A DNA stretch of 64,000 nt, from NCBI GenBank assembly GCA_036568505.1, contig DATCSK010000027.1, positions 8,828 to 72,827 of the forward strand. Reading direction: 5' to 3'. Position numbers and translations under genes: made by a program. Below are positions 5,718 to 43,109 of this stretch, in pieces. The stretch comes from Pseudomonadales bacterium. GTDB taxonomy: Bacteria; Pseudomonadota; Gammaproteobacteria; Pseudomonadales; M0112. Below the pieces are notes generated by a model that worked only from the letters and a program-made list of their open reading frames with translations, was not told where the DNA came from and searched no databases. Position 1 is the first letter of the stretch, and every line of letters starts with the position of its first letter.

Positions 5718-6761
5718 ATGGATACCCTGACCATTACCCGCCCCGATGACTGGCACGTGCATTTTCGTGATGGTACCGCTTTGGGCGACACGGTAGCCGC
5801 CACGGCCCGCCAATTCGCCCGCGCCATCGCGATGCCCAACCTGAGGCCCCCGGTATTAACCACCGCAGACGCTGCTGCCTATCGTCAGCGCATGCTCGAT
5901 GCACTCAAGCAGAGCGCTCCCGAGCTTGCCTTTGACCCCCTGATGACGCTGTACCTGACCGACAAGACGCCGGCAGACGAAATTCAGCGGGCCCGCGATA
6001 GCGGCTTTGTGCATGCGGTCAAATACTACCCGGCCGGCGCCACCACCAACTCCGACAGCGGCGTCACCGCACTGGAAAAAGCATACCCCGCCATTGAGGC
6101 CATGGCCGACTGTGGCATGCCGCTGCTATTGCACGGCGAAGTCACTGACAGCAGCGCGGACATCTTCGACCGCGAGCGCATATTCGTCGACACGCATTTG
6201 CGCACCTTGATGGCACGCTTTCCTGCCTTAAAAGTCGTGCTGGAACACATTACGACCGGTGAAGCGGCCGATTTTGTACGCTCCGGTCCTGCGACACTGG
6301 CGGCGACCATTACACCGCATCACCTGCTCTACAATCGCAACCACCTGTTAGCCGGCGGCATACGACCCCATTTGTACTGCCTGCCCATACTCAAGCGCGA
6401 CACGCACCAGCAAGCGCTCATCGCTGCAGCCACCAGCGGCAATCCGAAGTTTTTTCTGGGCACGGATTCCGCTCCGCATGCCCGTCATAGCAAGGAATGC
6501 GCTTGCGGCTGCGCCGGCATTTATTCAGCGCACATTGCATTGGAGTTGTACGCCGAGGTATTCGATCGGGCCGGTGCACTCGACAAACTCGAAGGCTTTG
6601 CCAGCCATTTTGGCGCTGATTTTTATGGCCTGCCCCGCAATACCGATCGCATCACCTTAAAACGCGAGTCACAGACCGTTCCTGCGACACTGACCTTGGG
6701 CAACGATACATTGATTCCATTGCGTGCAGGCGAGCGTATTGATTGGCGCATCAGCCAGTGA
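5718..6761 (+). CDS. pyrC: Dihydroorotase, homodimeric type
   Basis: [10 protein letters not shown] and [13 protein letters not shown] metal-ligand motifs. Start set at [13 protein letters not shown]. Confidence 0.9.
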
Positions 6762-7393
6762 CCGAGCCCGACATCGCAACACCGCATCCCTTATCGCAGC
6801 GTTTCCGCGGTTTTTACCCGGTCGTGATTGACATTGAAACCACCGGATTTGATTGCCAGCAGCACGGCATTCTTGAAATCAGCGCCGCCCTGCCCAGCAT
6901 GGATGAATCAGGCCGCTTGATCATCAAAGACGTACTGGATTTCGCGATTATCCCGCATCGCGATGCCGTGATTGATCCGTCATCCATCGCCTTTCACGGC
7001 ATTGACCCGGCCGACCCCGATCGACACGCCCGACCCGAAGCCGATGCCTTTTGCGAGATGCTGCAAGCCGTACGGCTCGCACAGAAACAACACGACTGCC
7101 AACGCAGCATTCTGGTCGCGCACAATGCGCAATTCGACCAAGGCTTCTTGCGCGCGGCGATTGCCCGCAACCAGATCAAACGCGATCCGTTTCATCCCTT
7201 TTCAAGCTTCGATACTGCCACATTAGCCGCTTTGGCCTGCGGGCAAACGGTGCTGGCAAAAGCTTGCGAATACGCCGGTATTGATTTCAACAATAGCGAC
7301 GCGCATTCCGCTGCCTACGACACGCGCCGAACCGCCGAACTGTTTTGCTGGATTGTGAACCGCTGGACCGACCTTAGCGAAGGTCGCGGGTAA
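6758..7393 (+). CDS. rnt: Ribonuclease T
   Basis: DEDDh exonuclease motifs [10 protein letters not shown] and [16 protein letters not shown]. The GTG start overlaps the pyrC stop (GTGA) and gives an N-terminus of E. coli-like length before RFRGFYP. Confidence 0.85.
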
Positions 7394-7394
7394 T

Positions 7395-8027
7395 TTAAAA
7401 TTTATCGGGAAAATTTAACTCGCAAAGTGCTCGCAATTCTTTTTTTCCAATCACCTCAATACGATGATTTTCCTTCTCTTTCCACTCCGCAATATTCGCT
7501 TTCAATGCCGTTAAGTCCGGCACATCACCCTTGAACGCAACGCTGACAATGTTGCGTGGAAAATCATCTTTACCGCAATAATCAACGATCGACACATCAA
7601 ACGGCTTGAGTAATGACTCCAGGCCTTTCGGAGTAAATCGCCAATAATCCTCCGGATAACCATGGATCAAAAAATTCATGACCGATGTCACAATGGCCAT
7701 GCCGGGCGATGCCAGAACGCGATGAATTTCAGACAATGCCAGCCAAGGGTATTCCACGTGCTCAATCGTATCGACGCAAATTACCGTGCCCACCGAATGA
7801 TCGGGTAAATCCAGCGCATGCAGGTTCTGCAAGGAGTCCACTCCCGGACCTGCGCGCATATCACAACCGACATACTCAAGCCCAAGACCCGTTATGCATT
7901 CTCGGAAATTCGTGGCGCCATGCAGCGTTGGCGTATCAATCTCCATGGAGCCAAATTCGTATACCGGCCCCTTGGGTGGCATAGCCTGAAGCACTGCCTC
8001 GACGTAATTTCTGATCACCGGCCTCAT
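7395..8027 (-). CDS. Class I SAM-dependent methyltransferase
   Basis: Methyltransf_11-like blocks YEFGS...VGCDMRAGPGVD...DHSVGTVICVDTIEHVEYP. The gene is visibly more AT-rich than its neighbours. Confidence 0.65.
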   Translation of the reverse strand: MRPVIRNYVEAVLQAMPPKGPVYEFGSMEIDTPTLHGATNFRECITGLGLEYVGCDMRAGPGVDSLQNLHALDLPDHSVGTVICVDTIEHVEYPWLALSEIHRVLASPGMAIVTSVMNFLIHGYPEDYWRFTPKGLESLLKPFDVSIVDYCGKDDFPRNIVSVAFKGDVPDLTALKANIAEWKEKENHRIEVIGKKELRALCELNFPDKF

Positions 8028-8066: not shown

Positions 8067-8097
8067 AAAAAAAACGCGGGCAACAGCCCGCGTTTTT
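8067..8097 (-). terminator. Intrinsic terminator after the peroxiredoxin gene (bidirectional shape)
   Basis: A8-CGCGGG-caacag-CCCGCG-T5. Read on the minus strand, the hairpin is followed by a T-run. Confidence 0.75.
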
Positions 8098-8111
8098 CAA
8101 ATCCGTACCGA

Positions 8112-8714
8112 TTAGAGCTTATCAGCATTCTGCGACAGGTACTCGGCCACGCCGGCAGGTGATGCTTTCATACCTTTGTCACCTTGTTTCCAACCGGCAG
8201 GGCAGACTTCACCGTGCTCCTCATGGAACTGCAGGGCTTCAACCAAACGAATCACTTCATCAAAGTTACGGCCCAATGGCAGATCGTTGATGATTTGTGA
8301 ACGCACCATGCCTTTCTTATCAATGATAAACGCACCGCGGAACGCCACACCACCGGCAGCTTCAACATCATAAGCACGGCAAATATCGTGGTTGATGTCA
8401 GCGGCCATGGTGTATTTCACCGGACCAATACCGCCATCATTGATGGCCGTATTACGCCACGCATTGTGCGTAAAATGCGAGTCAATCGACACACCAATGA
8501 CTTCTACACCCAACTTCTTAAACGCATCCATACGGTGATCGACGGCGATCAACTCGGACGGGCATACGAAAGTGAAATCCAATGGCCAGAAAAACACCAA
8601 ACCGTACTTGCCATCAATGGTCTTTTTCAGATTAAAATCAGCAACGATCTTGCCGTCACCGAGCACTGCATTACAGGTAAAATCGGGCGCTGGCTTACCA
8701 ACTAAAACACCCAT
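8112..8714 (-). CDS. Typical 2-Cys peroxiredoxin (AhpC/Tsa family)
   Basis: Peroxidatic Cys in FWPLDFTFVCPSE and resolving Cys in HGEVCPAGW. Start set at MGVLVGKPAPDF, preceded by GGAGG. Confidence 0.9.
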   Translation of the reverse strand: MGVLVGKPAPDFTCNAVLGDGKIVADFNLKKTIDGKYGLVFFWPLDFTFVCPSELIAVDHRMDAFKKLGVEVIGVSIDSHFTHNAWRNTAINDGGIGPVKYTMAADINHDICRAYDVEAAGGVAFRGAFIIDKKGMVRSQIINDLPLGRNFDEVIRLVEALQFHEEHGEVCPAGWKQGDKGMKASPAGVAEYLSQNADKL

Positions 8715-8837
8715 GTTGACCTCCATTTTCAGGTTACTTGAACCGCCTGCCTTGATGGCCGACAGCGTTAAAAGGGCGTTCATCATACACCGCTCACCAC
8801 GGCATTCACACCCCGAAAATCCCTGCAAACTCAAGGC

Positions 8838-9569
8838 CTAGCAGTTTTTCCGGCGAGAACCCCAAACAAACAACCCAGAGATTCCCAGTAGCAGCATGGC
8901 CACCCCGGAAAGATCCATGAGCAATACCGTGAACTGCCCGAACAGGCGTCCGCTGTGCAAATCCAGGATGACCTGCTCCACGGTCAGGGTCGAACCTGCG
9001 GGAATATCCGGCACGCCGGGCACGCCGCGAACCTGCGTTACGACGACCACCCATGCCGGCTCCTGCCCTTCTGCCGGTGTGAATGACAGGTGCTCCGCAT
9101 CGAAAATCCACGCCTGCCCGTCCATCAACACCTGCACAATACCGTCACGGGCAGCAACGGCCTCCACCGTCCCGGGCAGTCCGTGCTCAGGACCAATGCG
9201 CTCCAACAACTGGTCACTGCCATCAAATATCCACAGCGCATTACCGCAAGCAGCCATCCAACCTTGCGGCAGACCGACTGCACCGGCAAACCAGTCACCA
9301 CACTGCACCGTGAAATGTGTGCCGCGATACAGCCGGTCTACGCCATCGTGCACCACGGGTGTGTCACCCAACATCGCGATCGATACACTTGGCGGCTCGA
9401 TGCCGTATAACGCCAACAACCACGATTGATGCACTGTCACACCCAAACCCAAGCCTTTGGTATGGTTGAGTGCGATACCGGTTATCGACACCACCATAAT
9501 GAAGGCGACCGCCATCAAACCCACCCGTCGATGCCAGCGCAACAAGAAGCCGCGCACAACCGGTTTCAT
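8838..9569 (-). CDS. PepSY-associated TM helix family membrane protein
   Basis: LRWHRRVGLMAVAFIMVVSITGIALNH near the N-terminus and DLHSGRLFG plus a final TM helix at the C-terminus. The ATG overlaps the upstream stop (ATGA). Confidence 0.7.
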   Translation of the reverse strand: MKPVVRGFLLRWHRRVGLMAVAFIMVVSITGIALNHTKGLGLGVTVHQSWLLALYGIEPPSVSIAMLGDTPVVHDGVDRLYRGTHFTVQCGDWFAGAVGLPQGWMAACGNALWIFDGSDQLLERIGPEHGLPGTVEAVAARDGIVQVLMDGQAWIFDAEHLSFTPAEGQEPAWVVVVTQVRGVPGVPDIPAGSTLTVEQVILDLHSGRLFGQFTVLLMDLSGVAMLLLGISGLFVWGSRRKNC

Positions 9570-10066
9570 GGTGTACGTCCTGCGCTGACCCGCGCATCCA
9601 GATACAGCGCCAGCCTCGCTACATTGCGCACGGCACGCACTGATAATGTGGCGCCACTGATGCCATCGATGGAGCGATCCAATTGCTGCTCATGCAATGT
9701 CGCACCCTGAAATTGCTTGGTAAAAAACGGATAGCGCACCTCACCACCGCGGCTTTCCCGATACTCTAAAACCTTCACGCGTGTGATCGCACCCGCACGG
9801 ACCACAACACCCACCGTGATCGGTCGCTCTTTGCCGATCTCATCCATGATCCACACTGTTCCGCCGTCAACCGGCCAATAACGTAAACGCAAATAGCCCG
9901 GAGCATGCCCCAGGATTTCAGTGCCCATGTCGCGATCAGCGCCATCAAGCCACCACTGCAAAGGTTCACCGGCTGACTCACTGGCGAGGAAGCGCTGAGT
10001 AGCCGATGCCAGATCCGCCTGTGATAACGCGGGCAGTAACAGCATGAGCAACAAAACATAACGCAT
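9566..10066 (-). CDS. Secreted FMN-binding domain protein
   Basis: Signal peptide MRYVLLLMLLLPALSQA. IDGISGATLSVRAV contains the [S/T]GA[T/S] flavinylation-type motif of FMN_bind domains. AGGAG lies upstream of the ATG. Confidence 0.7.
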   Translation of the reverse strand: MRYVLLLMLLLPALSQADLASATQRFLASESAGEPLQWWLDGADRDMGTEILGHAPGYLRLRYWPVDGGTVWIMDEIGKERPITVGVVVRAGAITRVKVLEYRESRGGEVRYPFFTKQFQGATLHEQQLDRSIDGISGATLSVRAVRNVARLALYLDARVSAGRTP

Positions 10067-10132
10067 ACACACTCCTGAAAAAAACACGCGACAGGAAATC
10101 CCGCCGCGTGTGATTTATCAAAACCCCTGTAA

Positions 10133-11413
10133 TCAGAAGCTAACGCCAATACCCAAGTTAAAGCCATCGTAGGCATCGTTGCCTTTGGGCGCATTCTGGA
10201 ACTGGTAATCGGCCTTCAGCACCACCTGCTCATGCAGCCAGTAATTGATACCCACATCCCACTCCTCATAACGGGTGTTATTACCGCCTGCACCCGCCTG
10301 ATTGTCCCATTCACTGTAACGCGTGAAAACACCCACTGCTTCGCTAAAGCGCCAGGACGGCTCGATATACCAACCTTCCTGCACGTTCGCACCCAAAGCC
10401 ACTTGCTCGATATCGTTATTGATATCCCAGCGCGCGATCAATGCACGCAAGCCGAACGGGCCGCTCTCATACACTGCATGCGCTTCGTACAGCCAAGCAT
10501 CGATATCTTCGCGATTGCCCAAGGCATCAATAAAGTTATCCTGATAAATATCTTGCTGATACTGCACGGTAGTCGCCAATTCCAACCCTGCAATACCGGT
10601 GTACTTCAAGCGGCCGGTATACGCCAATGCATTCGCTTCGGCTTCAGACACTTTCTGACGTCCATCACGCACTTTATAGTCGTAGGTTGCGGGCACACCC
10701 GTCACATCGGTATCCAGCCCCAAGCCACTGGTCACCGCTATGTCGTACCCGACACCCGGCACCACTTCACCACCAAGAGCCACACCGCCTTCCCACCACG
10801 TGGTCGGGATAATGTTTTTCTCTACGTTATTGCGCTCAACGCCGTAAAACGTATTCGGTTCGTGCGTTTCGTTGAGAATACCCACCGGCACCAGAAACAA
10901 ACCCGCTGTCGCGTGCTGCGTATCACTCAAATCGTATTCGATGTAAGCCTGTTCAAGTTCGACTTCACCGTTCTGATCATCACCTGCCACACTGTGCTCC
11001 AGCTCGATTTCAGAGAAAAAGCGCAGACGGTCATTGAACTCATGACCCAAGAACACCACGAAACGGTGGAAGTCTATCTCGTTTTTGTCGTTATCTTTGC
11101 CAGGCACATTGTTTTGATTTTCAAGATTGTTGTAATGCATCTCGGCATAGCCACCGACGGTGGTTTTCGCAGCCCAATTATCCAAGCCTGACGAAGAGGC
11201 GCTGACGGTTTCAACCGCCGTAGCCGTTGCTTCTACTTTAATGTCTGTTTCATGCAGCTGGGTTTGCTGTTTTTCCAATTGTTGCTGCAATACGCGGATT
11301 TGCTCTTGCTGCTGCTGAATGATTTTCCACATTTCTTCTGTGCTGGGAGCCGCCAACGCCGGCATCGCCAGCAATGCCGCAGTCAACCCCACAACCAATG
11401 GCTTGTGCATCAT
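10133..11413 (-). CDS. Outer-membrane porin with N-terminal coiled-coil segment
   Basis: Signal peptide MMHKPLVVGLTAALLAMPALA. A Gln-rich heptad segment is followed by alternating beta-strand sequence ending in a terminal Phe (GIGVSF). AGGGGA RBS. Confidence 0.65.
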   Translation of the reverse strand: MMHKPLVVGLTAALLAMPALAAPSTEEMWKIIQQQQEQIRVLQQQLEKQQTQLHETDIKVEATATAVETVSASSSGLDNWAAKTTVGGYAEMHYNNLENQNNVPGKDNDKNEIDFHRFVVFLGHEFNDRLRFFSEIELEHSVAGDDQNGEVELEQAYIEYDLSDTQHATAGLFLVPVGILNETHEPNTFYGVERNNVEKNIIPTTWWEGGVALGGEVVPGVGYDIAVTSGLGLDTDVTGVPATYDYKVRDGRQKVSEAEANALAYTGRLKYTGIAGLELATTVQYQQDIYQDNFIDALGNREDIDAWLYEAHAVYESGPFGLRALIARWDINNDIEQVALGANVQEGWYIEPSWRFSEAVGVFTRYSEWDNQAGAGGNNTRYEEWDVGINYWLHEQVVLKADYQFQNAPKGNDAYDGFNLGIGVSF

Positions 11414-11466
11414 GATTCCCCTGATTCCAGTCATCGAATACGGCCCGGACCCCCGAACCGGTCGAG

Positions 11467-11495
11467 ACTATAATCAGAATCATTACCAAATGCAA
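11467..11495 (-). promoter_or_regulatory. Sigma-70 type promoter of the porin operon
   Basis: On the minus strand: TTGCAT, 17 nt, TATAGT, about 50 nt upstream of the porin start. Confidence 0.6.
11469..11487. promoter_or_regulatory. Fur box
   Basis: TATAATCAGAATCATTACC matches the 19-mer Fur consensus GATAATGATAATCATTATC at 15/19. It covers the -10 and spacer of the predicted promoter. Confidence 0.7.
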
Positions 11496-11510
11496 ATAAT
11501 TATCATTTGA
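11492..11510. promoter_or_regulatory. Second, weaker Fur-like site
   Basis: GCAAATAATTATCATTTGA matches the Fur consensus at 12/19 and overlaps the -35. Confidence 0.35.
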
Positions 11511-11528
11511 TATTGTTGGCGCCCGCCC

Positions 11529-11554
11529 AAAAAAAAGCCCCGCCTAAGCGGGGC
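11529..11554 (-). terminator. Intrinsic terminator of grxD
   Basis: On the minus strand: GCCCCGC-ttag-GCGGGGC followed by T8. Confidence 0.8.
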
Positions 11555-11571
11555 TCTGATTCGTTTTTGAT

Positions 11572-11892
11572 TCACTCCTGGGGCGATGCCGCACGCAACA
11601 AGGGCTCGAGTTCACCGCTTTCGTGCATTTCACAAACGATATCGCAACCGCCGATCAATTCCCCTTTTACCCATAATTGCGGGAACGTTGGCCAGTTAGC
11701 ATAAGCGGGCAAGTTCGCGCGAATCTCCGGATGACTCAAGACATCAACATAAGCAAAGCGCTGGCCGCATGCCATCAAGGCTTCGACCGTACGCGCTGAA
11801 AAGCCGCACTGCGGCATGTTCGGACTACCTTTCATGTACAGAATAACGGCATTGCTCTCGATCTGTTCTTTGATGGTATCCATGATGTCCAT
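11572..11892 (-). CDS. grxD: Monothiol glutaredoxin (Grx4 family)
   Basis: CGFS active site in PQCGFSARTVEAL; 106 aa. Confidence 0.9.
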   Translation of the reverse strand: MDIMDTIKEQIESNAVILYMKGSPNMPQCGFSARTVEALMACGQRFAYVDVLSHPEIRANLPAYANWPTFPQLWVKGELIGGCDIVCEMHESGELEPLLRAASPQE

Positions 11893-14585: not shown

Positions 14586-14679
14586 CCGTCCCGACCCAAG
14601 CCCCCATGCCCTGTCCAACACAGACTAATTCAATAGAGCATATGCCCGAGTGGCACCAATAAGGATATGGAGAGGCAGC

Positions 14680-17559
14680 ATGCAGACCCAAAGCGAATCA
14701 CGTTCCAACCCCTCAGCCCCCGTCAGCCCCGGTCATGGAGGTTCTGACATGGACATGGCTGCCACAGCCCCGGGTCACTTGCGCGTCATCAAACGCAACG
14801 GCACCGTCGTGCCTTACGAGGACAGCAAGATTGCCGTCGCCATGACCAAAGCCTTTTTGGCGGTCGAGGGCGGTACGGCAGCCGCCTCCAGCCGTATTCA
14901 CGAACTGGTCAACGAACTGGCCACTCAGGTCAGTGCAACCTTTAACCGTCGCATGCCCTCGGGCGGCTCGGTCCACATTGAAGAAATCCAGGATCAGGTC
15001 GAGCTCACCTTAATGCGCAGCGGCGAGCAAAAAATTGCCCGTGCCTATGTGCTCTACCGTGAAGAACAAAATCGCAAACGCGCACAGCAAGGCGAAGCGG
15101 CTCCGGCCATTGATGCGCGCGCCGCCGGCATTCATGTCGTTCATCTCGACGGCCATCGCGCACCGCTGGATGTGGTGCGCTTACGCACGGTCATCGATGA
15201 AGCCTGCATGAACCTGGAGCATGTCGATGCCAATCGCATCTTTGAAGAATCCCTGAAAAACCTCTACGACGGCGTATCGGCCGATGATGTCGGCACCTCA
15301 CTGGTTATTACTGCGCGCACCTTGGTAGAAGAAGAGCCCAACTACACCTACGTCACCGCACGCCTTCTGATGGATAAATTGCGTGCCGAAGCACTGAACT
15401 TTCTGGGCATTGCCAAAGTGGCTACCCAAGCCGAAATGCGTACGTTCTACCCACAAGCGCTGGCGGCTTATATCGCCAAAGGTGTTGAACTCGAGCTGCT
15501 CTCACCGAGCCTGCGAAACTTTGACCTCAAGCGCCTGGGCGCCGCACTGAAGCCCGAGCGTGATTTGAACTTCACCTATCTGGGCTTGCAGACCCTCTAC
15601 GACCGCTACTTTATTCATAGCCGCGACACCCGCTTCGAGTTGCCGCAAGTATTTTTCATGCGCGTTGCCATGGGTTTGGCCGAAGCCGAAAACGACCCGA
15701 ATGCCCGCGCCATTGAGTTCTATGAACTGCTGTCATCGTTTGACTACATGTCGTCAACCCCCACCTTGTTCAATGCCGGCACACTGCGCCCGCAACTGTC
15801 ATCGTGCTATCTGACGACGGTTCCGGATGATCTGGATGGCATCTTCCAGGCCATCCATGACAACGCCATGCTCTCCAAGTGGGCCGGCGGTCTGGGCAAT
15901 GACTGGACACCCGTTCGCGGCCTGGGTGCGCGCATCAAGGGCACCAACGGCAAAAGCCAAGGCGTGGTGCCGTTCCTGAAAGTCGTCAATGACACCGCCG
16001 TTGCGGTCAATCAGGGCGGCAAGCGCAAAGGCGCCGTTTGTGCCTACCTTGAAACCTGGCATATCGATATTGAAGAGTTTATTGAGTTACGCAAAAACAC
16101 CGGCGATGACCGTCGACGCACACACGACATGAACTCTGCCAACTGGATTCCCGATTTGTTCATGAAGCGCGTGATCAACGACGGCGACTGGCTGCTGTTC
16201 TCGCCAAACGACGTGCCGGATCTGCACGACCTCTACGGTCAAGCGTTTGAACAGCGTTATGAACAGTATGAAAAAATGGCTGCAGACGGCACCATCAAAC
16301 TGTTCAAACGCATCAAGGCGGTGAGCCTGTGGCGCAAAATGCTGGCCATGCTGTTTGAAACAGGACACCCGTGGGTCACCTTTAAAGACCCCTGCAATAT
16401 TCGCTCGCCACAAGGCCATACGGGTGTCGTGCATTCCTCCAACCTGTGCACCGAAATCACACTCAACACCAGTGCCGATGAAATTGCTGTGTGCAACCTG
16501 GGCTCCGTCAATCTCGCGCAACACATCACGGATGACGGCAAGCTGGACATCGACAAACTGGGCAAAACCGTTCGCACCGCCGTGCGCATGCTCGATAACG
16601 TGATCGATATTAACTACTACTCGGTACCGCAAGCACGCACATCCAATATGCGTCATCGCCCGGTAGGCTTGGGCATCATGGGCTTTCAGGATGCCTTGTA
16701 TCGACAACACATTGCCTACTCCTCAGCCGAGGCCGTCGCATTTGCCGATCAATCCATGGAAGCCGTCAGCTATTTTGCGATTGAAGCATCGTCTGCACTG
16801 GCCGCTGAACGCGGTCGTTACAGCAGCTTTGAAGGCTCGCTTTGGAGTCGCGGCATCCTGCCCATCGACAGCATTAAATTGTTACGTAAAGAACGCGGCA
16901 GCGACTTCCTCAATATGGATGAAAGCCAGACACTGGATTGGGACAGCCTACGCCAGACGGTGAAAACACAAGGCATGCGCAATTCCAATGTCATGGCGAT
17001 TGCACCGACGGCCACCATTGCCAACATCACCGGCGTATCGCAATCGATTGAACCGACATATCAAAACCTGTATGTGAAATCGAACCTCTCCGGCGAATTC
17101 ACCGTGGTAAATCCGTATCTGGTACGCGACCTGAAAAACCGTGGCCTGTGGGACAAAGTGATGGTCAACGATCTCAAATACTACGAAGGCAGTGTGCAGA
17201 AAATCGACCGTATCCCGGCCGATTTGAAAGCCCTCTACGCCACGGCATTTGAAGTCGAGCCACGCTGGTTGGTGGAAGCCGCCAGCCGCCGTCAAAAATG
17301 GATTGATCAGGCGCAGTCGCTGAACCTCTATATCGCCGAGGCCAGCGGCAAGAAGCTCGACATCACCTATAAAATGGCTTGGTTGTCAGGCCTCAAAACC
17401 ACTTACTACCTGCGCGCACTGAGTGCTACCGCGACAGAGAAGTCCACCATCACGACCGGTGCATTGAACGCCGTGTCCAGTGGCTCTGACGCTGTTGAAG
17501 CCGCACCGGTACCGCAGGCCTGTTCACTGGATGACCCCGACTGCGAAGCTTGTCAGTAA
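14680..17559 (+). CDS. nrdA: Class Ia ribonucleotide reductase alpha subunit
   Basis: ATP-cone RVIKRNGTVVPYEDSKI plus a second degenerate cone. Catalytic SSNLCTEITLNT. C-terminal Cys pair CSLDDPDCEACQ. GGAGAGG RBS. Confidence 0.95.
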   Translation: MQTQSESRSNPSAPVSPGHGGSDMDMAATAPGHLRVIKRNGTVVPYEDSKIAVAMTKAFLAVEGGTAAASSRIHELVNELATQVSATFNRRMPSGGSVHIEEIQDQVELTLMRSGEQKIARAYVLYREEQNRKRAQQGEAAPAIDARAAGIHVVHLDGHRAPLDVVRLRTVIDEACMNLEHVDANRIFEESLKNLYDGVSADDVGTSLVITARTLVEEEPNYTYVTARLLMDKLRAEALNFLGIAKVATQAEMRTFYPQALAAYIAKGVELELLSPSLRNFDLKRLGAALKPERDLNFTYLGLQTLYDRYFIHSRDTRFELPQVFFMRVAMGLAEAENDPNARAIEFYELLSSFDYMSSTPTLFNAGTLRPQLSSCYLTTVPDDLDGIFQAIHDNAMLSKWAGGLGNDWTPVRGLGARIKGTNGKSQGVVPFLKVVNDTAVAVNQGGKRKGAVCAYLETWHIDIEEFIELRKNTGDDRRRTHDMNSANWIPDLFMKRVINDGDWLLFSPNDVPDLHDLYGQAFEQRYEQYEKMAADGTIKLFKRIKAVSLWRKMLAMLFETGHPWVTFKDPCNIRSPQGHTGVVHSSNLCTEITLNTSADEIAVCNLGSVNLAQHITDDGKLDIDKLGKTVRTAVRMLDNVIDINYYSVPQARTSNMRHRPVGLGIMGFQDALYRQHIAYSSAEAVAFADQSMEAVSYFAIEASSALAAERGRYSSFEGSLWSRGILPIDSIKLLRKERGSDFLNMDESQTLDWDSLRQTVKTQGMRNSNVMAIAPTATIANITGVSQSIEPTYQNLYVKSNLSGEFTVVNPYLVRDLKNRGLWDKVMVNDLKYYEGSVQKIDRIPADLKALYATAFEVEPRWLVEAASRRQKWIDQAQSLNLYIAEASGKKLDITYKMAWLSGLKTTYYLRALSATATEKSTITTGALNAVSSGSDAVEAAPVPQACSLDDPDCEACQ

Positions 17560-17604: not shown

Positions 17605-19314
17605 ATGAATAAACGCCCGATCCACCTACACGCCGACCGCTGGGCGTGGCTCGTGTTATTTGCGTTATTCACTGCGATTATTCTTTATTCTGCACGCTCC
17701 ACCCCACTGACATTTGATTCGGCGCGTCATGCCCTGATTGCACGCAATGTGATCGAAGGGCACGGGTTTGTCGTCAGCTACCCCGACTACACGCCCCTCA
17801 CCATCACCAGCAGCGGCCCCACCCTGATACTGCCCGCCGCCCTCATCATGGCATTGACTGGAAACCAGCTATGGGTGCCGGCTTTTGCATCGGCCATATT
17901 GAATTGCAGCCTGCTCGGTATTTTTCTGTTTTACCTGCAACGCATACTGTCATCGCCTCGGAGAATGGCCGCAACAACAGCATTGCTGCTTTTTTTCTTT
18001 CTATGGTACGAGCCCATTTGGTGGACCCATTTCATCGGCGAAACCAGCGCCCTGCTCTGCCTGTTGATTGCCTGCGCCATGGCAACCAACATTCCCAGAC
18101 CTGATGCCTACAAGCACTACGGCCTGATTGGCATGATGCTGGCCTTTTCATTGCTTGCCCGCCCCATGACCATTCCCGGCATCGCAGGCCTGGGAACCTA
18201 TCTCCTGATCGCGCATATTCAGTATTACAAAGGTCGTATTTGCTGGAAAAACCTGGGGTTAATGCTGGCTGCAGGCTTGTTCGGCCTCATCATCGCCGAG
18301 ATGCCTTTCCGTTTTTACGAGGCATGGACCGTCGCGCAATACGATTCGGTCACCTACGGGCAATTCTGGGGTACGTTTATTGAGGCTTATGCCAACACGT
18401 CATCATCAGGTGTCCGCCATTTCCTGTCGGGTCACGCCGAAAACCCATTTCTCATTAACGCCAAGGCAAACCTCCAGTTATTTTCCACTGTCATGCACCG
18501 TTATGGCATCAACAACATCTTGGCGCTCGCCATCTGGGCGGGTGCCCTCATGGCCGGCTTAACGCTGTCGCTGCGCGCAAAAACCAAACTGGATCGCTTG
18601 AGCGGCATCGTAGGCTGGGGCTTGTTTTATTACAGCCTCTGGTTTTTCTTTTTGTGCCAAAGTGCTGGCATGGATCGCTACCTGATTCACCCCATATTAA
18701 TGGCGCTCATACTCATTACGTTGCTATGCGCACGTTACAGAAATATTTTAAGCACTACGATGCTCATCGGCACACTCTGCCTTGTTATGCCAACGGCCCA
18801 AAGCACACTCCTCAAGCAAATGATCACCTTCGCGGATATTGGCTGGATGGAAGGGCATAGCACCCAATACAATACTGAAGTCATTACGACTGCCGATTTC
18901 ATTGCTTCCCATTCCTTTACTTTTCCTCTCATGAACTGCGGATGGATTGGATCGACTCCCGAGTTGGAGTACCTGCTGCCCCGCACCGGCAATTTCCAAG
19001 ATTGTTTTGATGTCATTGAAGCCGCACTCGTGCCGGCCGAAAATACCACGGACCCTCAACATGCCTACCGTTGGAGGCAGCCCGTCAATTTCACGCTGGT
19101 GATTAACAAACTCCAATGGCGATTTGCCAAATTTTTCGTACCCAACCGGATACGCCATAAAACGCTCATTCAGGCTTGCGCACCCCAACCGGTGTACGAC
19201 TCCCTCTTATACCAGATCCTGGATTGCCCCTTCGAGGCTCTAGCCAAGACCATCCCGACGGACCGCAACACCCCCTTCATCGGCACCCCGCACGAATGGC
19301 TCAAAACCAATTGA
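17605..19314 (+). CDS. Polytopic membrane protein, putative GT-C fold (ArnT/PMT-like) glycosyltransferase
   Basis: At least 10 hydrophobic segments over about 400 aa, then a roughly 170 aa soluble C-terminal domain. The first loop, TFDSARHALIARNVIEGHGF, resembles the DE..Y..A motif loop of ArnT/PMT_2 enzymes. Lower GC than nrdA and nrdB. Confidence 0.45.
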   Translation: MNKRPIHLHADRWAWLVLFALFTAIILYSARSTPLTFDSARHALIARNVIEGHGFVVSYPDYTPLTITSSGPTLILPAALIMALTGNQLWVPAFASAILNCSLLGIFLFYLQRILSSPRRMAATTALLLFFFLWYEPIWWTHFIGETSALLCLLIACAMATNIPRPDAYKHYGLIGMMLAFSLLARPMTIPGIAGLGTYLLIAHIQYYKGRICWKNLGLMLAAGLFGLIIAEMPFRFYEAWTVAQYDSVTYGQFWGTFIEAYANTSSSGVRHFLSGHAENPFLINAKANLQLFSTVMHRYGINNILALAIWAGALMAGLTLSLRAKTKLDRLSGIVGWGLFYYSLWFFFLCQSAGMDRYLIHPILMALILITLLCARYRNILSTTMLIGTLCLVMPTAQSTLLKQMITFADIGWMEGHSTQYNTEVITTADFIASHSFTFPLMNCGWIGSTPELEYLLPRTGNFQDCFDVIEAALVPAENTTDPQHAYRWRQPVNFTLVINKLQWRFAKFFVPNRIRHKTLIQACAPQPVYDSLLYQILDCPFEALAKTIPTDRNTPFIGTPHEWLKTN

Positions 19315-19444: not shown

Positions 19445-19638
19445 AAAATGCTTATTGGCCAGCGCGACACTGATAATAATGCGGCCGCCTCTTCCAGAGA
19501 GCCCGCTAACCACGCAGCCAGAGCTATTTTGACGTATTCATGGAGCAGCACCTGCCAGCATGATTCCAGTAATTGATTTTTCGGGTCACCCCCGGACGTG
19601 AGGACATCATGGCTGAAACAACCAAGAGGAAAAGGACG

Positions 19639-20913
19639 ATGTTGAGCTGGGATGACTACCACGCCGCCGAAGAAACCCCTGTTCAGGCTCGCCAACAGGC
19701 CATACGCGACACCCCCGTTATTGAAGAACCGGAAGAACACACTCCCCCGGCCAAGGCCCCGGTAGCCGCCGCCCAAGCCAAGGCCACTCCCGCACCGGCG
19801 ACCAGCACCTCTGCGGCGGCCAACATTGCCCGCGCACAAGCCGCGCTGGAAGCACTCGATGTCGCTCCCGGACTGGAAGAGCTTGAAATGGGCGCATCCC
19901 GCGTGGAAGTCGACGACAAGCGCATGATCAATTGCCGGGCGGATTTGAACCAGCTTGTGCCTTTTAAATACGATTGGGCCTGGCAGAAGTACCTGGATGG
20001 CTGTGCCAACCACTGGATGCCGCAAGAGGTCAACATGACCGCCGATGTCAGCCTATGGAAAAGCAGCGACGGCCTCTCCGACGATGAGCGCCGCATCATC
20101 ATGCGTTCATTGGGCTATTTCTCGACGGCCGACTCACTGGTTGCCAATAATCTGGTGCTGGCGATTTACCGCTTGATCACCAATCCGGAATGTCGCCAGT
20201 ACATCCTGCGCCAAGGGTTTGAAGAAGCCATTCATACCCACGCCTATCAATATTGTATTGAGTCATTGGGCATGGACGAAGGCGAGGTCTTCAATATGTA
20301 CCGCGAGGTGCCTTCCGTGGCTCGCAAAGCCACCTGGAGCCTCAAGCATACCCAGTCACTGGGCGATCCAACATTCCGCACCGGCACGCCCGAAACCGAT
20401 CAGGAGTTACTGCGCAATCTGGTCGCGTTTTATGTCGTCACCGAAGGGATTTTCTTCTACTGCGGCTTCACCCAGATTCTGTCCATGGGGCGCCGCAACA
20501 AGATGACCGGTGTGGCGGAGCAGTTCCAATACATCCTGCGCGATGAATCGATGCATCTGAATTTCGGCATTGACGTCATCAACCAGATCAAACTGGAAAA
20601 CCCGCATCTGTGGACCGCCGAGTTCCAGCAGGAAGTCATCCAGATGATTCTCGAGGGTACCCAGCTCGAGATCGAATACGCTCGTGACACGATGCCTCGT
20701 GGCGTACTCGGCATGAACGCTGCCATGATGGAAGAATACCTGCAATTCATCGCCAATCGCCGTCTGGCGCAGCTCGGTCTTCCAGAGCACTTCAAAGGCT
20801 CAAAAAATCCTTTCCCGTGGATGTCTGAAATTATGGATCTGCGCAAGGAGAAGAACTTCTTTGAAACACGCGTCACCGAATACCAGACTGGCGGAGCGCT
20901 CAGCTGGGAGTGA
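19639..20913 (+). CDS. nrdB: Class Ia ribonucleotide reductase beta subunit
   Basis: Di-iron ligand motifs [13 protein letters not shown] and [11 protein letters not shown]. Start set at MLSWDDY after AAGAGGAAAAGGA. An alternative ATG lies at 19609. Confidence 0.92.
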
Positions 20914-34457: not shown

Positions 34458-35021
34458 ATGCATTCACCCCAGACCGGTTTCACCCTGACCGAACTGCTCA
34501 CGGCATTGATGATCGCCAGCATTCTGGTCGCAACGGGCGCGCCCGCACTGAGCGCAAGCCGCGACAAAGCCCGCGCCAACCACACGACTCAAAACGCGCT
34601 GCATGCCATTCAGCACGCGCGCACATTAGCGATTCATCACCAAAGCGGTGTCATTACCCTCTGCGGCAGCAGTGACGGCCACGCATGCAGCAACGACTGG
34701 AGCCAAGGCTGGATATTGTTTGCCGACGACAACAACAACCACCGTTGGGATGCCGACGAACCACTGCACCAAAAAGACCAGCACTCCCTCGACGGTCAGC
34801 TGCGCTGGCGCGGCTCAGCCGGTCGGCCCTACCTGCGTTTTACCGCCGTCGGGTATGCCATGGAATTCGGATCACTCACTTACTGCGCGCCGGATCATGA
34901 CCCACGCCATGCACGACAAATCACCATCAATCGTCCAGGCCGGGCCCGCCTATCGCGCGACCGCAATGGCGATGGCATCCATGAAGACAGTTATGACAAA
35001 CCCCTGGACTGCGCATCGTAA
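34458..35021 (+). CDS. fimT: GspH/FimT family minor pilin
   Basis: Prepilin N-terminus QTGFTLTELLTALMIASIL. Size and position after pilR fit FimT. Confidence 0.65.
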   Translation: MHSPQTGFTLTELLTALMIASILVATGAPALSASRDKARANHTTQNALHAIQHARTLAIHHQSGVITLCGSSDGHACSNDWSQGWILFADDNNNHRWDADEPLHQKDQHSLDGQLRWRGSAGRPYLRFTAVGYAMEFGSLTYCAPDHDPRHARQITINRPGRARLSRDRNGDGIHEDSYDKPLDCAS

Positions 35022-35036
35022 AGGCATCGCACCGAC

Positions 35037-35059
35037 AAAAAAAAGCCGCCAGAGGCGGC
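35037..35059 (-). terminator. Intrinsic terminator of the minor pilin operon (after pilE)
   Basis: On the minus strand: GCCGCC-tct-GGCGGC followed by T8. Confidence 0.75.
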
Positions 35060-35110
35060 TTGAAGAACTTCAGTACATCCCTCGACCTGCGGGGGAAACC
35101 ATCATTCACA

Positions 35111-35533
35111 TCACGGGAAGCATATCCTCGGCTGGCGCTCGCCGGTATTGGTAATCGTCAAGACACTGCAATTAGCATTACCCTGCTTATCCAGGGTTTG
35201 ATTGTTTTTAGCCGTCGCCGTTGCCGTAAACGTAGAACCGTTCGCAACAACCGTGACTTGATACCACAACTCACCGGCACTCACACCTTTAGGTACGTTG
35301 ACTTTGATACTGCTATTTTCCAATGGCGTGGCATCGCCATTTTTGTACGCATTATTGGCGTTGTAGTATTTCTCTTGGTCATTCACCACCATCATCAAGG
35401 TATTAATGCCTTCTGCACGGCGCGCCTTGCGCGTATACTGGTTGTATTGCGGATAACCGATGCCGGCCAAAATGCCCACAATCGCCACCACAATCATCAA
35501 CTCCACCAAGGTAAAGCCATCAGCTTGTTTCAT
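35111..35533 (-). CDS. pilE: Type IV pilin-like protein PilE
   Basis: [23 protein letters not shown] class III signal sequence. Last gene of the fimU-pilVWXY1Y2E type operon. Confidence 0.75.
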
Positions 35534-35568
35534 ATAGTCTCCTAAGGGCAGCTAAGCCACCGCTACCA

Positions 35569-35916
35569 TCAAGGTGCCGATTGAATAATCCGCTGCACAT
35601 CGGCAACGGGACCGCTGATTTGAACCGTGTCCAGATCACCGATCGCACCGGCCTGATTGCTCAGCGCATAATTGACCCACAGGCCTTCCGATAACTGACT
35701 GGCCGATATCCACAGGCTCTTTCCATTCGGCAGGCGAACCGATACCGACGTTGCCGGCGTCAGCAAATACGCCCGACCGTCAATCACCAGATTTTTGCCC
35801 AAGCCATCCTCATCAGCCTTGATCGCAGTCACTTTGCCAGAGAACGTATCGGCCTGTACCGCCGCTGTCGCAATGACAGCGGCCAATCCTACAATCCATT
35901 TATTCATCATGATCAT
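35569..35916 (-). CDS. PilY2-position small secreted protein
   Basis: Signal peptide MNKWIVGLAAVIATAAVQA. 115 aa, between pilY1 and pilE. Call is by position only. Confidence 0.4.
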   Translation of the reverse strand: MIMMNKWIVGLAAVIATAAVQADTFSGKVTAIKADEDGLGKNLVIDGRAYLLTPATSVSVRLPNGKSLWISASQLSEGLWVNYALSNQAGAIGDLDTVQISGPVADVQRIIQSAP

Positions 35917-35925
35917 ATGCTCCCA

Positions 35926-38900
35926 TCAATTCAAATGACGCCAGGACATCCGACCCGTCGTGTCATCGACCGATTCCAGGACGTTGCTGATGCTGCCCGT
36001 ACTGCTGCTGAAGGTTTTACTCTCACTGCCATTGCCTTTCACGATCTCGGGTGACTGCAACAGACCATCGAAGAGAAGACCCGACGGCACGGTGCCATCG
36101 GCGATAGCCGATGCCAGATCGTAATCCAGATCGTCCAGATTGAAGCTGCCGTCTTTATTCAAATCAAACGGCGGATCATTCAGACGCGAGCCGGTCAAGG
36201 CGCTCATTTCCATCAGCCAGCTGTAGCCGCCCGATGAGCACGGATCTTGCGTTGGCACCCAGGTGGTAAACACGATACGGCCGCCGTCACTGGCCAGCTG
36301 CGGATCAGTGACCGAGCGTTCGCCTTCGTTTTTACCGGTCTTCACGTTCAGCAGGTTGATGTACCAACCCATATTGGGTTCATTGCTGGTGTAATCCGGA
36401 TCGGCCTTGGTGGTAATGCGGATGCCGTAGGTAATACCGCCAACCACCGCCGTCTCTTGCTGGGTAATCCGCTGCTGGAACAGATCCGCCGGCGTCAGTG
36501 TTTTGAAGCCATTCGGATCTTTCAAGTCATCCCATATCCCGTAGAAGGCCTGGGTGGGTGTGCTGGCGGTGACAATATTATCGCCAACCTCCAGGTATTT
36601 GCCGGTACCAAACAGGATGACATACCCCCCGTTCGGGTGCTTGATCGCTTTCGGCTGCACGGTAATCGGCTGGCCGGTGGCGGTCTTAAAGTGTGCTTTA
36701 CCACTGTGCGCTACGTTCCAGTCAGAAGGCAGGGCCTTGGAAATATCGAACTTCCAGAGGTTGCCTTGCAAGTCACCGGCATACACGTAATCGCCGTCCC
36801 AATCACCGTCCCAATCCACCACCACCGGGCCTGACAGACCGTTGGCCAGCGCTGCGGTTCCGAGTTCGTTGGTATCGAGCTTTTTGATCAACACACCGGT
36901 CACGGCATCGAGCACGAACAACACGGCCGAGCCGCGGCCGACAAAACCATCGGGCTCTTTGCTGTTGTAACCGTTAGCAACCAACGCACCCCAACGACCG
37001 TTGTTCAGCTTCACCACCGGAATTTTGCTTAAGACATAGCCCAAATCGACATCGTCTTCGTGCAGGAATTCCCACATGGCCAGCTTCTCGGCATTGGCTT
37101 CACTGAAGTTATCCGGATCGGTCACATTCAGCGAATAGATGCCTTGACCACCGGTGCCGAGCGCGCCAAACAACAGGGTCTGCCAACGGTAATCCCCTGA
37201 CGGGAATGTCGCGTCGTACACGTCCATGCTATTGGTCGGTGCGTTCACATAAAACTGGTGACCGTAGTTGCGATCGGCCAGCGCGGGCAAATTCGGATAC
37301 ACCATCGCCGGTACGTATGCGATCAGCTCCTTACCGCTATTGGCCATGCCACTGGTGGAATCAAAGCCGTGCAACATGCCGTCGTTCGCGCCCACGTACA
37401 CCATGGGTGTGCGGTTTTTGTATTTGTTCACGAACGAGGAGTACGGCGAACCGGCAATCGAGTTGGTGAACGCCTCATCAGGACGGCCCACGTACTCCGG
37501 TGCCGACGCAATAATATCGCCCAGCAAATGGTTGCGCGTACGGAACTTATAGGTGGTTGAACTGCCTTCTTGCGAACGCTGACCGCGCAAGTAGTTCACC
37601 AGTGCCGTGCCGTAAGCCTGATTCGCGGCAATCTCACTCGTCACCGTGGTGTTCGCCGGATACGGTGCCCGCGACAGCAAGTCGGCAATTTCGACGCGGT
37701 CGAATTCACCGACAACCGGCGCCGTATAATTTGCCGGGAAGCGGAAAGGCACGCCTTTATACGTTGCCGGGTTATAACTGATGATGTTGCGCGAAGTATG
37801 CGACATGGCATCCAGCGTGTCGTTGGCTTCCCACAAAGTGGCACCGACACCGCCGTTGACCAAAGTCTGCAATGCCCTCAGATTACCGCTCCAGTCACCT
37901 GAGTTAAATTGCGCCTGATACAGCAAGGCGTCACCCAACACACGGCCCGAGGTTGATGCCAGCGCGGAAGATGACGAAATCAAACCCGAAATCACATCAA
38001 AGATTTTTTCGAAACCGTCGAGCAACTCTTGCGGGTTACGGGCCGAAATGAACTTGCCATTGCCGTTATAGGCGGCATGCCACAAGTCATCGATTTTTTC
38101 AGGGTTTTCTTGACCGCTGGTCTCCGGCACACGCGCACCGTTCCATTCGGTGCTGCGCATCACCGCCGCCACGCCTTTAATGGCCGGGTCAATCGCCGGT
38201 GTAAAGGCCGTCGCCGGGTTGGTGCGCAAGTTCCAATCGGGCCAGCCATCCGGCGCTACGGCATCATCTTGCAACAAGCCTGGCACACCAAACGATACCG
38301 GGAAGGTCACCAGATGCTGCTGCTTGAGCTGCGTCATGCCGGCGTTATCTTTCACCGGCACGTTATTATCCATGGTGGTGTGCAAATCGTAGCCGGAGTT
38401 CAAGCCCACTTTATAGGCAATGTCCGACATTTTATCGGTTGCACCATCACCGTCTTCATCGGCCACGCCGGCAATCGATTCACCGCCAGTGTAATAACCG
38501 TCGGTCATCACAATCGCAAAGTTATGCTGGCAGGAATACAGGATCGGGTTATTGCTGCTGTTGGTGCGGCTATCGAAATAGTCCCACGCGTTTTTATACC
38601 CTTCGCGCAGCGGCGTGCCCGAGCCGTTACTGCCTTCGTTATCCAGATGGTGGTAGTACATGTTGGTGTACAAGGTAGCGTAGTTATACGGGCCGGTTGC
38701 CGCCGCCGGCATATTGACGCGCGTCACCAGTGATTTGCCACCGTTCGTGTAGGTGCGACCGGGCTCTTTCTTGATCAAGCCCAAGCCATAACGAAGCCCC
38801 GGGTTTTGTTGCACGACTTTGCCCACTGCTTCACGGGCCACGAAAGTACGCTTACGACCAAACTCGTACCACGTCGCTATCTGGTTCATCAGGTCGGTTG

Positions 38901-40086: not shown

Positions 40087-40126
40087 GATTGTCGCCTCTC
40101 TCCCCGCCGTGCGGGTCACATGCCTA

Positions 40127-40738
40127 TTACTGTTTAGCGTAAATGCTTTCGAGCAGCACCACGGTATCTTCCCGACCGCCCGTGCCGCGCCCTACAATCC
40201 GATAATACGTACTCGTGGCATTGCCATCACTGATGCCCACACCGGCGCTGCCCGTGCCTGCCGCAGTCGATGTCATGAGCAGCTCCACCACGTACTGCGG
40301 CTCTTGATACACAAACCAACTGGTATCGGAGGCACCGGCACGCTTCAACGCGGTATTGAGTGCCACCTTATTGCCCTCGGTCGACCAGAAATTGGCCTCC
40401 GTTGCTTTATTCCACCAATCACTGCTGCCCACTTTGTCTTTGATGGCATCACGCGCCCACACATAGCCATCACCGGGCGATGGATCGACGGTGCCATCCG
40501 GTACAGTCAACAACGCCTGCAGCCATGCCTCACCGCCGGCCAAGGCCAGTTCCGCCATTTCAAAGGCAACCTGCTGATCTTGCAGATTACCCACCATCTT
40601 TTCTTGCGTATTGGCTGTGTTCATGGCCGCCACACCGATAAAGGTCAATAGCAGCAACATAACCAATGAAACAATCAGTACCGCACCTTGCTGGCGGCTA
40701 CCGGTGTTGATGTTCTGTGTCATTAATTTATTCATCAT
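40127..40738 (-). CDS. pilX: Minor pilin PilX
   Basis: QQGAVLIVSLVMLLLLTFIG N-terminus typical of PilX, and operon position. Confidence 0.7.
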   Translation of the reverse strand: MMNKLMTQNINTGSRQQGAVLIVSLVMLLLLTFIGVAAMNTANTQEKMVGNLQDQQVAFEMAELALAGGEAWLQALLTVPDGTVDPSPGDGYVWARDAIKDKVGSSDWWNKATEANFWSTEGNKVALNTALKRAGASDTSWFVYQEPQYVVELLMTSTAAGTGSAGVGISDGNATSTYYRIVGRGTGGREDTVVLLESIYAKQ

Positions 40739-40750
40739 TACCTTGCCTGA

Positions 40751-42986: not shown

Positions 42987-43109
42987 CACGGCACATGCAC
43001 CCTGCCAATACTTTTCGGTACTGTAGGTATACGCCACTTATCGTGACTAGCTCAAGGGCTTTCCGACAGGCGGATACGGCGTGGCGATAAGCGGTAACTG
43101 ACTGAAAAA

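Follow-up and report, generated by a model that had tools for sequence, protein, structure and literature searches.

A conserved gene trio encoding a porin, an FMN_bind protein and a half-size PepSY_TM protein behind a Fur-like operator: a candidate TonB-independent reductive iron-acquisition module

Flavinylation-associated systems of the PepSY-like class, in which an extracytosolic substrate of ApbE is encoded beside a PepSY_TM-type membrane protein, were defined by bioinformatic analysis, and it has been proposed that they reduce and assimilate iron (Meheust 2021, eLife, PMC8238504). Clusters of this class are Fur-repressed in Shewanella and Caulobacter, and PepSY_TM proteins reduce ferric siderophores in the periplasm (PMC8238504). 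Here, we describe a three-gene unit encoding a porin, a flavin mononucleotide (FMN)-binding protein of the FMN_bind family and a PepSY_TM membrane protein in a 64 000-nucleotide stretch of DNA from a Pseudomonadales bacterium (assembly GCA_036568505.1, contig DATCSK010000027.1, positions 8828 to 72 827; this whole stretch is called the window and is numbered from its first letter). Coordinates are collected in Table 1. We interpret the trio, with fair though not firm confidence, as an envelope-spanning module, repressed by Fur, that acquires iron reductively and independently of TonB.

The membrane protein is best compared with FoxB (7ABW), a four-helix bundle with two bis-His b-haems whose cytoplasmic haem is ligated by His198 and whose periplasmic haem is contacted, at a propionate, by Arg342 (bioRxiv 10.1101/2021.01.28.428567). 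With FoxB, FpvG, FhuB, FsrB and HiuB it shares a WHR motif that opens the odd transmembrane (TM) helix and an LHxGR motif before the even one; reductases of this type are iron-regulated and act on periplasmic iron. FoxB has four TM helices, two PepSY domains and 382 residues, acts together with a TonB-dependent receptor and lacks a flavoprotein partner, whereas the PepSY_TM protein of the trio has two TM helices, 243 residues and an all-beta, propeller-like cap and is paired with a porin and an FMN_bind protein. The latter shares with RnfG and NqrC of the RNF and NQR complexes the FMN_bind domain and the SGAT motif, the Thr of which is flavinylated by ApbE; it differs from them in scoring 22 bits against family cut-offs of 102–230, in its cleavable-looking signal peptide and in lacking RNF or NQR partner genes. 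The porin shares the 16-strand trimeric-porin fold of DcaP from Acinetobacter baumannii (6EUS) and of OprP/OprO. OprP has an arginine ladder (title of 2O4V), whereas the conserved channel residues of the trio porin are mainly Glu and His, which would point towards cations and away from phosphate. When single sequences were searched against the PDB, none of the three proteins gave a match, so that no solved relative of the PepSY_TM protein was obtained in this way; the porin has no sequence-level match to any solved porin.

Reductive iron uptake through porins in cyanobacteria follows the same concept as that considered here: iron passes the outer membrane independently of TonB, undergoes reduction at the inner membrane and then enters the cell as Fe(II). 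VciB of Vibrio cholerae (cited in PMC8238504) fits this concept as well. Both routes differ from the trio in using other proteins. To our knowledge, no dedicated three-gene operon has been described for either of them.

Since the PepSY-like flavinylated class has already been defined bioinformatically, the trio is regarded as a variant of it and not as a wholly unknown kind of system. Typical members of the class carry DUF2271, DUF4198 and ApbE, some with a TonB-dependent receptor or VIT1; the trio instead has a porin as its first gene product, an FMN_bind domain as the flavoprotein and a half-size PepSY_TM protein. A literature search found no description of this combination, in agreement with an earlier sequence-only reading of the window (the first-pass annotation), which knew of no characterization of it. 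The word 'porin' is absent from the main text of PMC8238504, and in the part of its supplement that was accessible the sole trio-type cluster found was binned as 'OrganohalideReductase'. The Fur-repressed so1188–so1190 operon of Shewanella oneidensis was considered as an orthologue and rejected: a 2009 paper annotates SO1190 as the periplasmic component of an ABC-type Co2+ transporter and not as a porin, and the operon is therefore taken, judged by annotation, to be a different (DUF4198-type) PepSY cluster. SO0448 and SO0449 are annotated as 'inner membrane protein' and 'iron-regulated membrane protein', and both are iron-responsive (PMC2667191); they could be the FMN_bind/PepSY_TM pair, a lead suggested by their annotation.

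The open reading frame (ORF) listing of the window and Pfam searches placed the three co-directional minus-strand genes and their domains where the first-pass annotation had put them, each of the Porin_4, FMN_bind and PepSY_TM matches exceeding its own curated Pfam cut-off. The stop codon of the FMN_bind gene and the start codon of the PepSY_TM gene share the sequence ATGA (a 4 nt overlap), as had been noted. To assess conservation, 80 loci encoding relatives of the FMN_bind protein were fetched, and tblastn searches with the porin, FMN_bind and PepSY_TM proteins of the window were used to score gene order. About 75 of the 80 have the three genes in this order, with a median FMN_bind/PepSY_TM gap of −4 nt (overlap). 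Numerous aquatic bacteria carry the trio. The loci and other carriers come from Gammaproteobacteria (among them Shewanella, Colwelliaceae, Cellvibrionaceae, Porticoccaceae including HTCC2207 and Porticoccaceae/SAR92, Halioglobus, Methylophaga, Chromatiales and Ectothiorhodospiraceae), Betaproteobacteria (Methylophilaceae, Methylotenera and Thiobacillaceae), one zetaproteobacterium, alphaproteobacterial metagenome-assembled genomes (MAGs) and one Opitutaceae MAG. Cultured carriers include Shewanella algae, S. chilikensis, S. colwelliana, S. basaltis and S. inventionis; each of them has the protein annotated only as 'FMN-binding protein'. The families themselves are large: 4627 clusters at 90% identity for the FMN_bind protein, at least 7884 clusters for the porin and, for the half-size membrane protein, 1276 representatives at 50% identity (E ≤ 1e-30).

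Clustering of the neighbouring ORFs gave no other family in more than 14 of the 80 loci, and thus no conserved transporter or regulator beside the trio at that level; the recurrent neighbours (argC, erpA, hemJ-like, ptsP and rppH) reflect lineage synteny. The trio is a conserved, self-contained module. Separately, genes with functions that were judged by eye to be iron-related were seen near it: ErpA/IscA-type genes in 12 loci, bacterioferritin in seven and FecCD-type ABC parts in 8–14, with grxD beside the trio in the window and in four further loci and a YggX 'Iron_traffic' protein in L082 and L083. These iron-trafficking and iron–sulfur genes, in L082 at 8088–8495 and 6522–6803, may form a loose thematic neighbourhood or may be only lineage synteny.

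Transcription of the unit would start at a sigma-70-type promoter (TTTGCA-18-TATAGT, 9/12 in a consensus scan) that follows the grxD terminator and precedes the porin ATG by 54 nt. The first-pass annotation had read TTGCAT-17-TATAGT, which is equivalent and shifted by one base, and had correctly placed the grxD terminator hairpin upstream of the trio. Its 15/19 Fur box covering the promoter was also found: the sequence TATAATCAGAATCATTACC at 11469–11487 matches 15 of 19 positions of the E. coli/Pseudomonas 19-mer consensus. It is the sole match of at least 15/19 in the window, where first-order Markov simulations gave an expectation of 0.13. Two further overlapping Fur-like sites adjoin it (11486–11504 and 11492–11510), both scoring 13/19; the weaker site that had been reported over the −35 element is thus present, with a score of 13/19 and not 12/19. 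Together, the Fur-type hexamers span 42 bp over the −10 element, the spacer, the −35 element and the sequence upstream of it, forming the only such cluster in the window.

The operator is conserved along with the trio. The best 19-mer match in the 300 bp before the porin start was recorded for the 69 loci with enough upstream sequence and averaged 13.1/19, compared with 10.8 for random windows from the same loci and 11.0 for shuffled sequences; matches of at least 13/19 were present in 44 of the 69 loci versus about 10% of controls (Fisher p = 5e-20). A count made without any consensus gave AATGCAAA, ATGCAAAT, TGCAAATC, AATGATAA and AATGAGAA as the most enriched 8-mers upstream of the porin (p from 1e-35 to 1e-18). 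These words are pieces of the Fur box, several of them are present in the operator of the window and their enrichment is confined to the region upstream of the porin gene. By two independent tests, window statistics and cross-genome enrichment, the Fur box is not a chance match.

The same operator bears on whether iron is the metal concerned. The trio might instead act on another metal, reducing Cu(II) to Cu(I) as proposed for CrpH, or on another redox-active solute, with the Fur-like sites reflecting cross-regulation. CrpH is a copper-linked member of the PepSY_TM superfamily (PMC13038864), the periplasmic cavities of the superfamily are poorly conserved and the conserved His and Glu residues of the porin would bind several divalent metals. 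However, in most loci, and across classes, the operator reads as a Fur box, no copper genes accompany the trio and the thematic neighbours (ErpA, bacterioferritin, FecCD-type parts and, in the window, grxD) point to iron. We hold a different metal to be very improbable.

The first-pass annotation had described the three genes as a compact unit. This description is borne out by the conservation of the unit, but it overlooked an intrinsic-terminator-like hairpin (−26.5 kcal/mol, z = −6.1) directly 3′ of the porin stop codon. The T-run of the hairpin ends about 2 nt before the Shine–Dalgarno sequence (AGGAG) of the FMN_bind gene, which leaves no room for a promoter before that gene. Of 70 loci, 23 have a comparable hairpin with a T-run; in the rest the gap is short, in many cases 0–60 nt. 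The hairpin likely sets a high porin:reductase ratio by partial termination or stabilizes the 3′ end of the porin transcript. It could also be taken to divide the locus into two independent units, with the porin transcript terminated at the hairpin, the FMN_bind and PepSY_TM genes expressed separately and their adjacency to the porin gene historical. The strength of the hairpin and its recurrence across loci would agree with this. Against it, the T-run abuts the ribosome-binding site, the gap is short in many loci, the gaps contain neither Fur-like sites nor any other conserved signal and the gene order is kept across classes while all other neighbours change; of the explanations considered, we give this one the least credence. 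As neither Fur sites nor a second promoter were found in the porin–FMN_bind gaps across the loci, control appears to be exerted once, in front of the porin gene.

The assignment of the third protein to the PepSY_TM family was upheld (PF03929, E = 2.2e-11, 44.6 bits against a cut-off of 28.8; PF16357 was matched at its cut-off), whereas its half-size and probably haem-binding nature had gone unremarked. In the AlphaFold2 (AF2) model, which has a predicted local distance difference test (pLDDT) score of 94, TM1 comprises residues 3–35, thirteen beta strands residues 62–179, a short helix residues 197–206 and TM2 residues 212–242. There are thus only two TM helices, and a four-TM bundle is not present in one polypeptide. 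Among the best 150 representatives the length is about 228–364 residues, mostly 240–270. Since the PepSY_TM proteins compared in a recent survey all have at least four TM segments (PMC13038864), the subfamily is architecturally distinct.

Three His residues are invariant in an alignment of 58 sequences: His13 on the cytoplasmic side, His36 at the periplasmic end of TM1 and His205 on the periplasmic side. The family profile matches FoxB with E = 6e-5 and does so in both FoxB repeats. The segment comprising WHRR and TM1 aligns to FoxB residues 2–30 and to residues 190–220, which include His198, and the segment comprising DLHSGR and TM2 aligns to residues 337–378, which include Arg342, and weakly also to residues 141–167. 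FoxB haem contacts correspond to His13, which aligns to the TM1/TM3 His (His198), and to His205 and Arg208, and these three positions show no or almost no variation. His205 and Arg208 fall on the H339-x-x-R342 segment of FoxB, and haem binding is predicted on this basis. As the two TM helices match both FoxB repeats, a homodimer would be needed to rebuild the bundle, and two copies likely assemble into a FoxB-like di-haem bundle. The periplasmic domain gave its best Foldseek matches, all weak (E = 7e-4 to 1e-2), with fragments of about three blades from NHL, hemopexin and Kelch propellers; FoxB was absent from the top 50 Foldseek matches of the model. In the model the cap is not a PepSY domain and looks like a partial beta-propeller.

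The predicted flavinylation motif of the FMN_bind protein, S137-G-A-T140, was found as described in the first-pass annotation. It fits the [S/T]GA[S/T] motif that is flavinylated by ApbE (PMC8238504), which makes Thr140 the predicted FMN attachment residue. The surrounding sequence DGISGATLS is invariant in 24 diverse homologues. The N-terminus (MRYVLLLMLLLPALSQA followed by Asp), with a hydrophobic segment and SQA before the Asp, resembles a cleavable Sec/SPI signal, and the Emcibacter homologue is called SP(Sec/SPI) in the supplement of PMC8238504. As previously reported, no apbE or Fe2+ permease gene is present in the window: Pfam found neither ApbE nor FeoB domains among the 36 large ORFs scanned, and tblastn with two ApbE query sequences gave a best E value of 1.2. 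ApbE joins the module in five of the 80 loci (L041, L062, L071, L004 and L008). It lies 3′ of the PepSY_TM gene, with overlapping or almost abutting ORFs, in the Rhodospirillaceae MAG L041 (Pfam 7e-69) and the Opitutaceae MAG L062 (5e-56), and according to the same supplement the Emcibacter genome has a divergent apbE adjoining the porin gene, the FMN_bind gene and a gene for an uncharacterized 1-TM protein. The invariant motif and the ApbE linkage provide good comparative evidence that the FMN_bind protein is a client of ApbE and back the predicted flavinylation; most Gammaproteobacteria presumably use an ApbE encoded elsewhere in the genome.

In L008 (a Burkholderiales MAG, 8482–10053) and L004 (an uncultured-bacterium contig, 1976–2812), ApbE is encoded directly 3′ of FMN_bind. 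A half-size PepSY_TM homologue was not detected in these two loci, which may be variants with a different membrane partner, and L008 has a second FMN_bind-like segment further downstream.

A flavoprotein under Fur control need not handle iron. It could be an iron-sparing carrier that replaces a periplasmic c-type cytochrome or Fe–S protein, in parallel with the replacement of ferredoxin by flavodoxin, the FMN_bind/PepSY_TM pair then feeding a periplasmic redox enzyme. Fur control fits sparing and uptake equally well, the trio has no linked iron transporter and FMN_bind domains serve many non-iron extracytosolic redox chains (PMC8238504). This explanation nevertheless does not account for why the pair should be strictly linked to a dedicated, highly conserved porin whose gene comes first and is Fur-controlled; no client oxidoreductase is conserved nearby and, judged from its conserved FoxB-like ligands, the PepSY_TM partner itself needs haem iron. 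We consider it unlikely.

The AF2 model of the porin (pLDDT 75) is a 16-strand barrel preceded by a signal peptide and an N-terminal helix (residues 25–60), in which strands 5 and 6 are joined by a long conserved loop (residues ~175–207) with a short helix in it. Foldseek matched it to OmpF, OmpC, OprP and DcaP (E = 6e-15 to 6e-13, target TM-scores of 0.60–0.73). Mean column identity is 68% among 43 homologues, with the invariant segments GYxEMHYNN, EIDFHRFV, SEIELEHS, GEVELEQAY and PVGILNETHEPxTFYGVERNNVE; the N-terminal helix carries the invariant motif P-x-x-EEMW-x-x-IQ-x-QQ-x-x-I-x-x-L. DcaP also has a periplasmic N-terminal coiled coil. The first-pass annotation was right in calling the protein a porin, but it overlooked that the conservation is far too high for a general diffusion pore and suggests a substrate-specific one instead.

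Invariant residues of the porin include E135/E137/E139, E150/E152/E154, H93, H116, H124, H140 and H184, and many of its Glu and His residues are at least 93% conserved in a wider set of 71 sequences. The Glu residues alternate on strands 3 (135/137/139) and 4 (150/152/154), so that each set should face one side of its strand, and they may form a cation path. PF07396 (OprO/OprP) gave no match at E ≤ 0.01 for the window porin, while some homologues carry a weak precomputed PF07396 match; the conserved strand residues are Glu and not Arg or Lys, so there is no basic ladder of the OprP type. The protein has 65 Asp and Glu against 26 Lys and Arg residues. It weakly resembles ExtI, a porin encoded in an operon for selenite/tellurite reduction (NCBIfam, 2.2e-5, far below the cut-off).

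The porin could also serve reduction at the cell surface, as part of a small assimilatory counterpart of porin–cytochrome conduits: electrons would pass through it, by way of the flavoprotein or of released reduced flavin, to Fe(III) minerals or chelates, and Fe(II) would be admitted. The porin and the redox proteins are co-inherited, the invariant residues of the periplasmic helix suggest a specific protein contact and the ExtI similarity, weak as it is, points the same way. A 16-strand, OmpF-like barrel with a long internal loop is, however, too narrow for a 15 kDa protein. Porin–cytochrome complexes use much larger barrels. Furthermore, no secreted flavin pathway is linked to the trio and covalent attachment of FMN speaks against a diffusible shuttle, which makes surface reduction, in our estimate, distinctly unlikely.

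The favoured interpretation, reductive iron acquisition through the porin, can be put as follows. When iron is plentiful, Fur–Fe2+ would occupy the operator of about 42 bp over the promoter; when iron is scarce, transcription would start upstream of the porin gene, and the hairpin would probably pass only part of the transcripts, so that the porin would be abundant and the two downstream proteins, which are translationally coupled, scarce. Small iron species such as inorganic Fe(III), small Fe(III) chelates or Fe(II) would enter the periplasm through the porin. A PepSY_TM homodimer would rebuild the four-helix, two-haem bundle of FoxB and bring electrons, drawn from the membrane or from the cytoplasmic side, out to the periplasmic face. 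After flavinylation of Thr140 by an ApbE whose gene lies elsewhere in the genome, the FMN_bind protein would accept these electrons and reduce Fe(III) to Fe(II) or, alternatively, pass them to reductase-bound iron. Uptake would be completed by an inner-membrane Fe(II) transporter that is not linked to the trio. The proposal of the first-pass annotation, an iron-starvation-induced flavin-dependent ferric reductase paired with a porin, is thus supported in each part open to computational testing, with the reductase activity itself a prediction, and the gene-level observation behind it is confirmed, with the small corrections given above.

A more elaborate version, which we regard as doubtful, would have the Glu/His-lined, cation-selective porin dock by its periplasmic helix on a homodimeric 'half-FoxB', the two partial propellers of which close into one ring with the flavinylated shuttle between them. 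The assembly would couple capture of unchelated or weakly chelated Fe(III) to its reduction across the envelope, and would represent a previously unrecognized, self-contained TonB-independent class that is widespread in marine and freshwater Proteobacteria.

Several points weigh against the favoured interpretation. The main ones are that the evidence on the trio is purely computational and that neither the window nor the other loci examined have an inner-membrane Fe(II)/Fe(III) transporter linked to it, so that the uptake step is hypothetical. Binding of Fur to the operator assumes that the Fur protein of this organism recognizes a 19-mer of the E. coli/Pseudomonas type. The hairpin, which a minority of loci have, could mean that the porin is mostly expressed alone. 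The periplasmic part of the PepSY_TM protein is not an alpha/beta PepSY domain, and the copper link of CrpH implies that membership of the family does not fix the metal. Overall acidity is common in general porins, and the charge argument for the porin accordingly carries little weight; the porin model is also only moderately confident.

The remainder of the window provides the genomic context. The peroxiredoxin gene begins 123 nt 3′ of the PepSY_TM stop codon with no clear terminator between them, and read-through from the Fur-controlled promoter is possible. As a fourth member of the operon it was rejected: only three loci have it, in another position or on the other strand. Between it and rnt lies a gene for a small class-I methyltransferase (7395–8027, minus strand; Methyltransf_11, 1e-07) in a local GC dip (0.455–0.48 against 0.55–0.60 in the flanks), which may be a recently acquired insert. 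An ORF of 569 residues (17605–19314, plus strand) forms an unusual insertion in the nrdAB pair, between nrdA (14650–17559) and nrdB (19573–20913); it has many hydrophobic segments and no Pfam match at 1e-5 and appears by eye to encode a polytopic membrane protein. The nrdB ORF (plus strand, 446 residues) shows the Ribonuc_red_sm domain only from residue 126, consistent with a later true start or an N-terminal extension. Pfam likewise gave no match at 1e-5 for two further ORFs, 57540–58325 (minus strand, 261 residues) and 61891–63156 (plus strand, 421 residues). A type IV pilus minor-pilin cluster (GspH/FimT-like, PilY1 of 1397 residues, PilX) occupies 34458–44072, 3′ of pilS/pilR, and is followed by ispH and ribF, the scanned members of the standard ribF–ileS–lspA–ispH block, an ordinary housekeeping context.

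Table 1. Features of the trio and its surroundings (window coordinates; a dot denotes no strand)
Feature	Position	Strand	Evidence
Porin gene	10133-11413	-	Pfam Porin_4, 1.9e-10; 426 aa
FMN_bind gene	9566-10066	-	Pfam FMN_bind, 8.3e-11; 166 aa
PepSY_TM gene	8838-9569	-	Pfam PepSY_TM, 2.2e-11; 243 aa
Fur operator, three overlapping Fur-box-like 19-mers	11469-11510	.	15/19 + 13/19 + 13/19
Sigma-70-type promoter	11467-11496	-	Consensus scan, 9/12
Intrinsic-terminator-like hairpin	10077-10111	-	12 bp stem (8 GC), 10111-10084, then T7
Invariant His13, His36 and His205 of the PepSY_TM protein	9531-9533, 9462-9464 and 8955-8957	-	Alignment of 58 sequences
Predicted flavinylation motif, codons of S137-T140	9647-9658 (read 9658-9647)	-	SGAT
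N-terminal helix of the porin, codons	~11234-11347	-	AF2 model
Loop between strands 5 and 6 of the porin	10793-10888	-	AF2 model
grxD	11572-11892	-	Grx4-type monothiol glutaredoxin, TIGR00365, 6e-45
grxD terminator, upstream boundary of the unit	11534-11557 (hairpin 11557-11534)	-	10 bp stem, 7 GC, T-run
Peroxiredoxin gene	8112-8714	-	AhpC-TSA, 4.6e-31; PRK15000 'peroxiredoxin C', 297.8 bits vs cut-off 301

To the first reading of this locus the present analysis adds the half-size haem subunit with its propeller-like cap (both predicted), the specific porin, the internal terminator, the linkage to ApbE elsewhere and the cross-genome support for the Fur operator. Little is understood, in terms of genes, of how bacteria lacking siderophores or matching TonB receptors acquire iron in waters that are oxic and poor in it. 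The trio is compact, conserved and apparently Fur-controlled, with carriers that include the opportunistic pathogen S. algae. If porin-coupled reductive uptake is its function, the trio would be a gene marker for that process in metagenomes and would give the FMN_bind/half-PepSY_TM pair its first function. It would also be an example of a substrate-specific, iron-regulated porin, and would indicate that the di-haem bundle of FoxB can arise from a half-size subunit with a different periplasmic cap.

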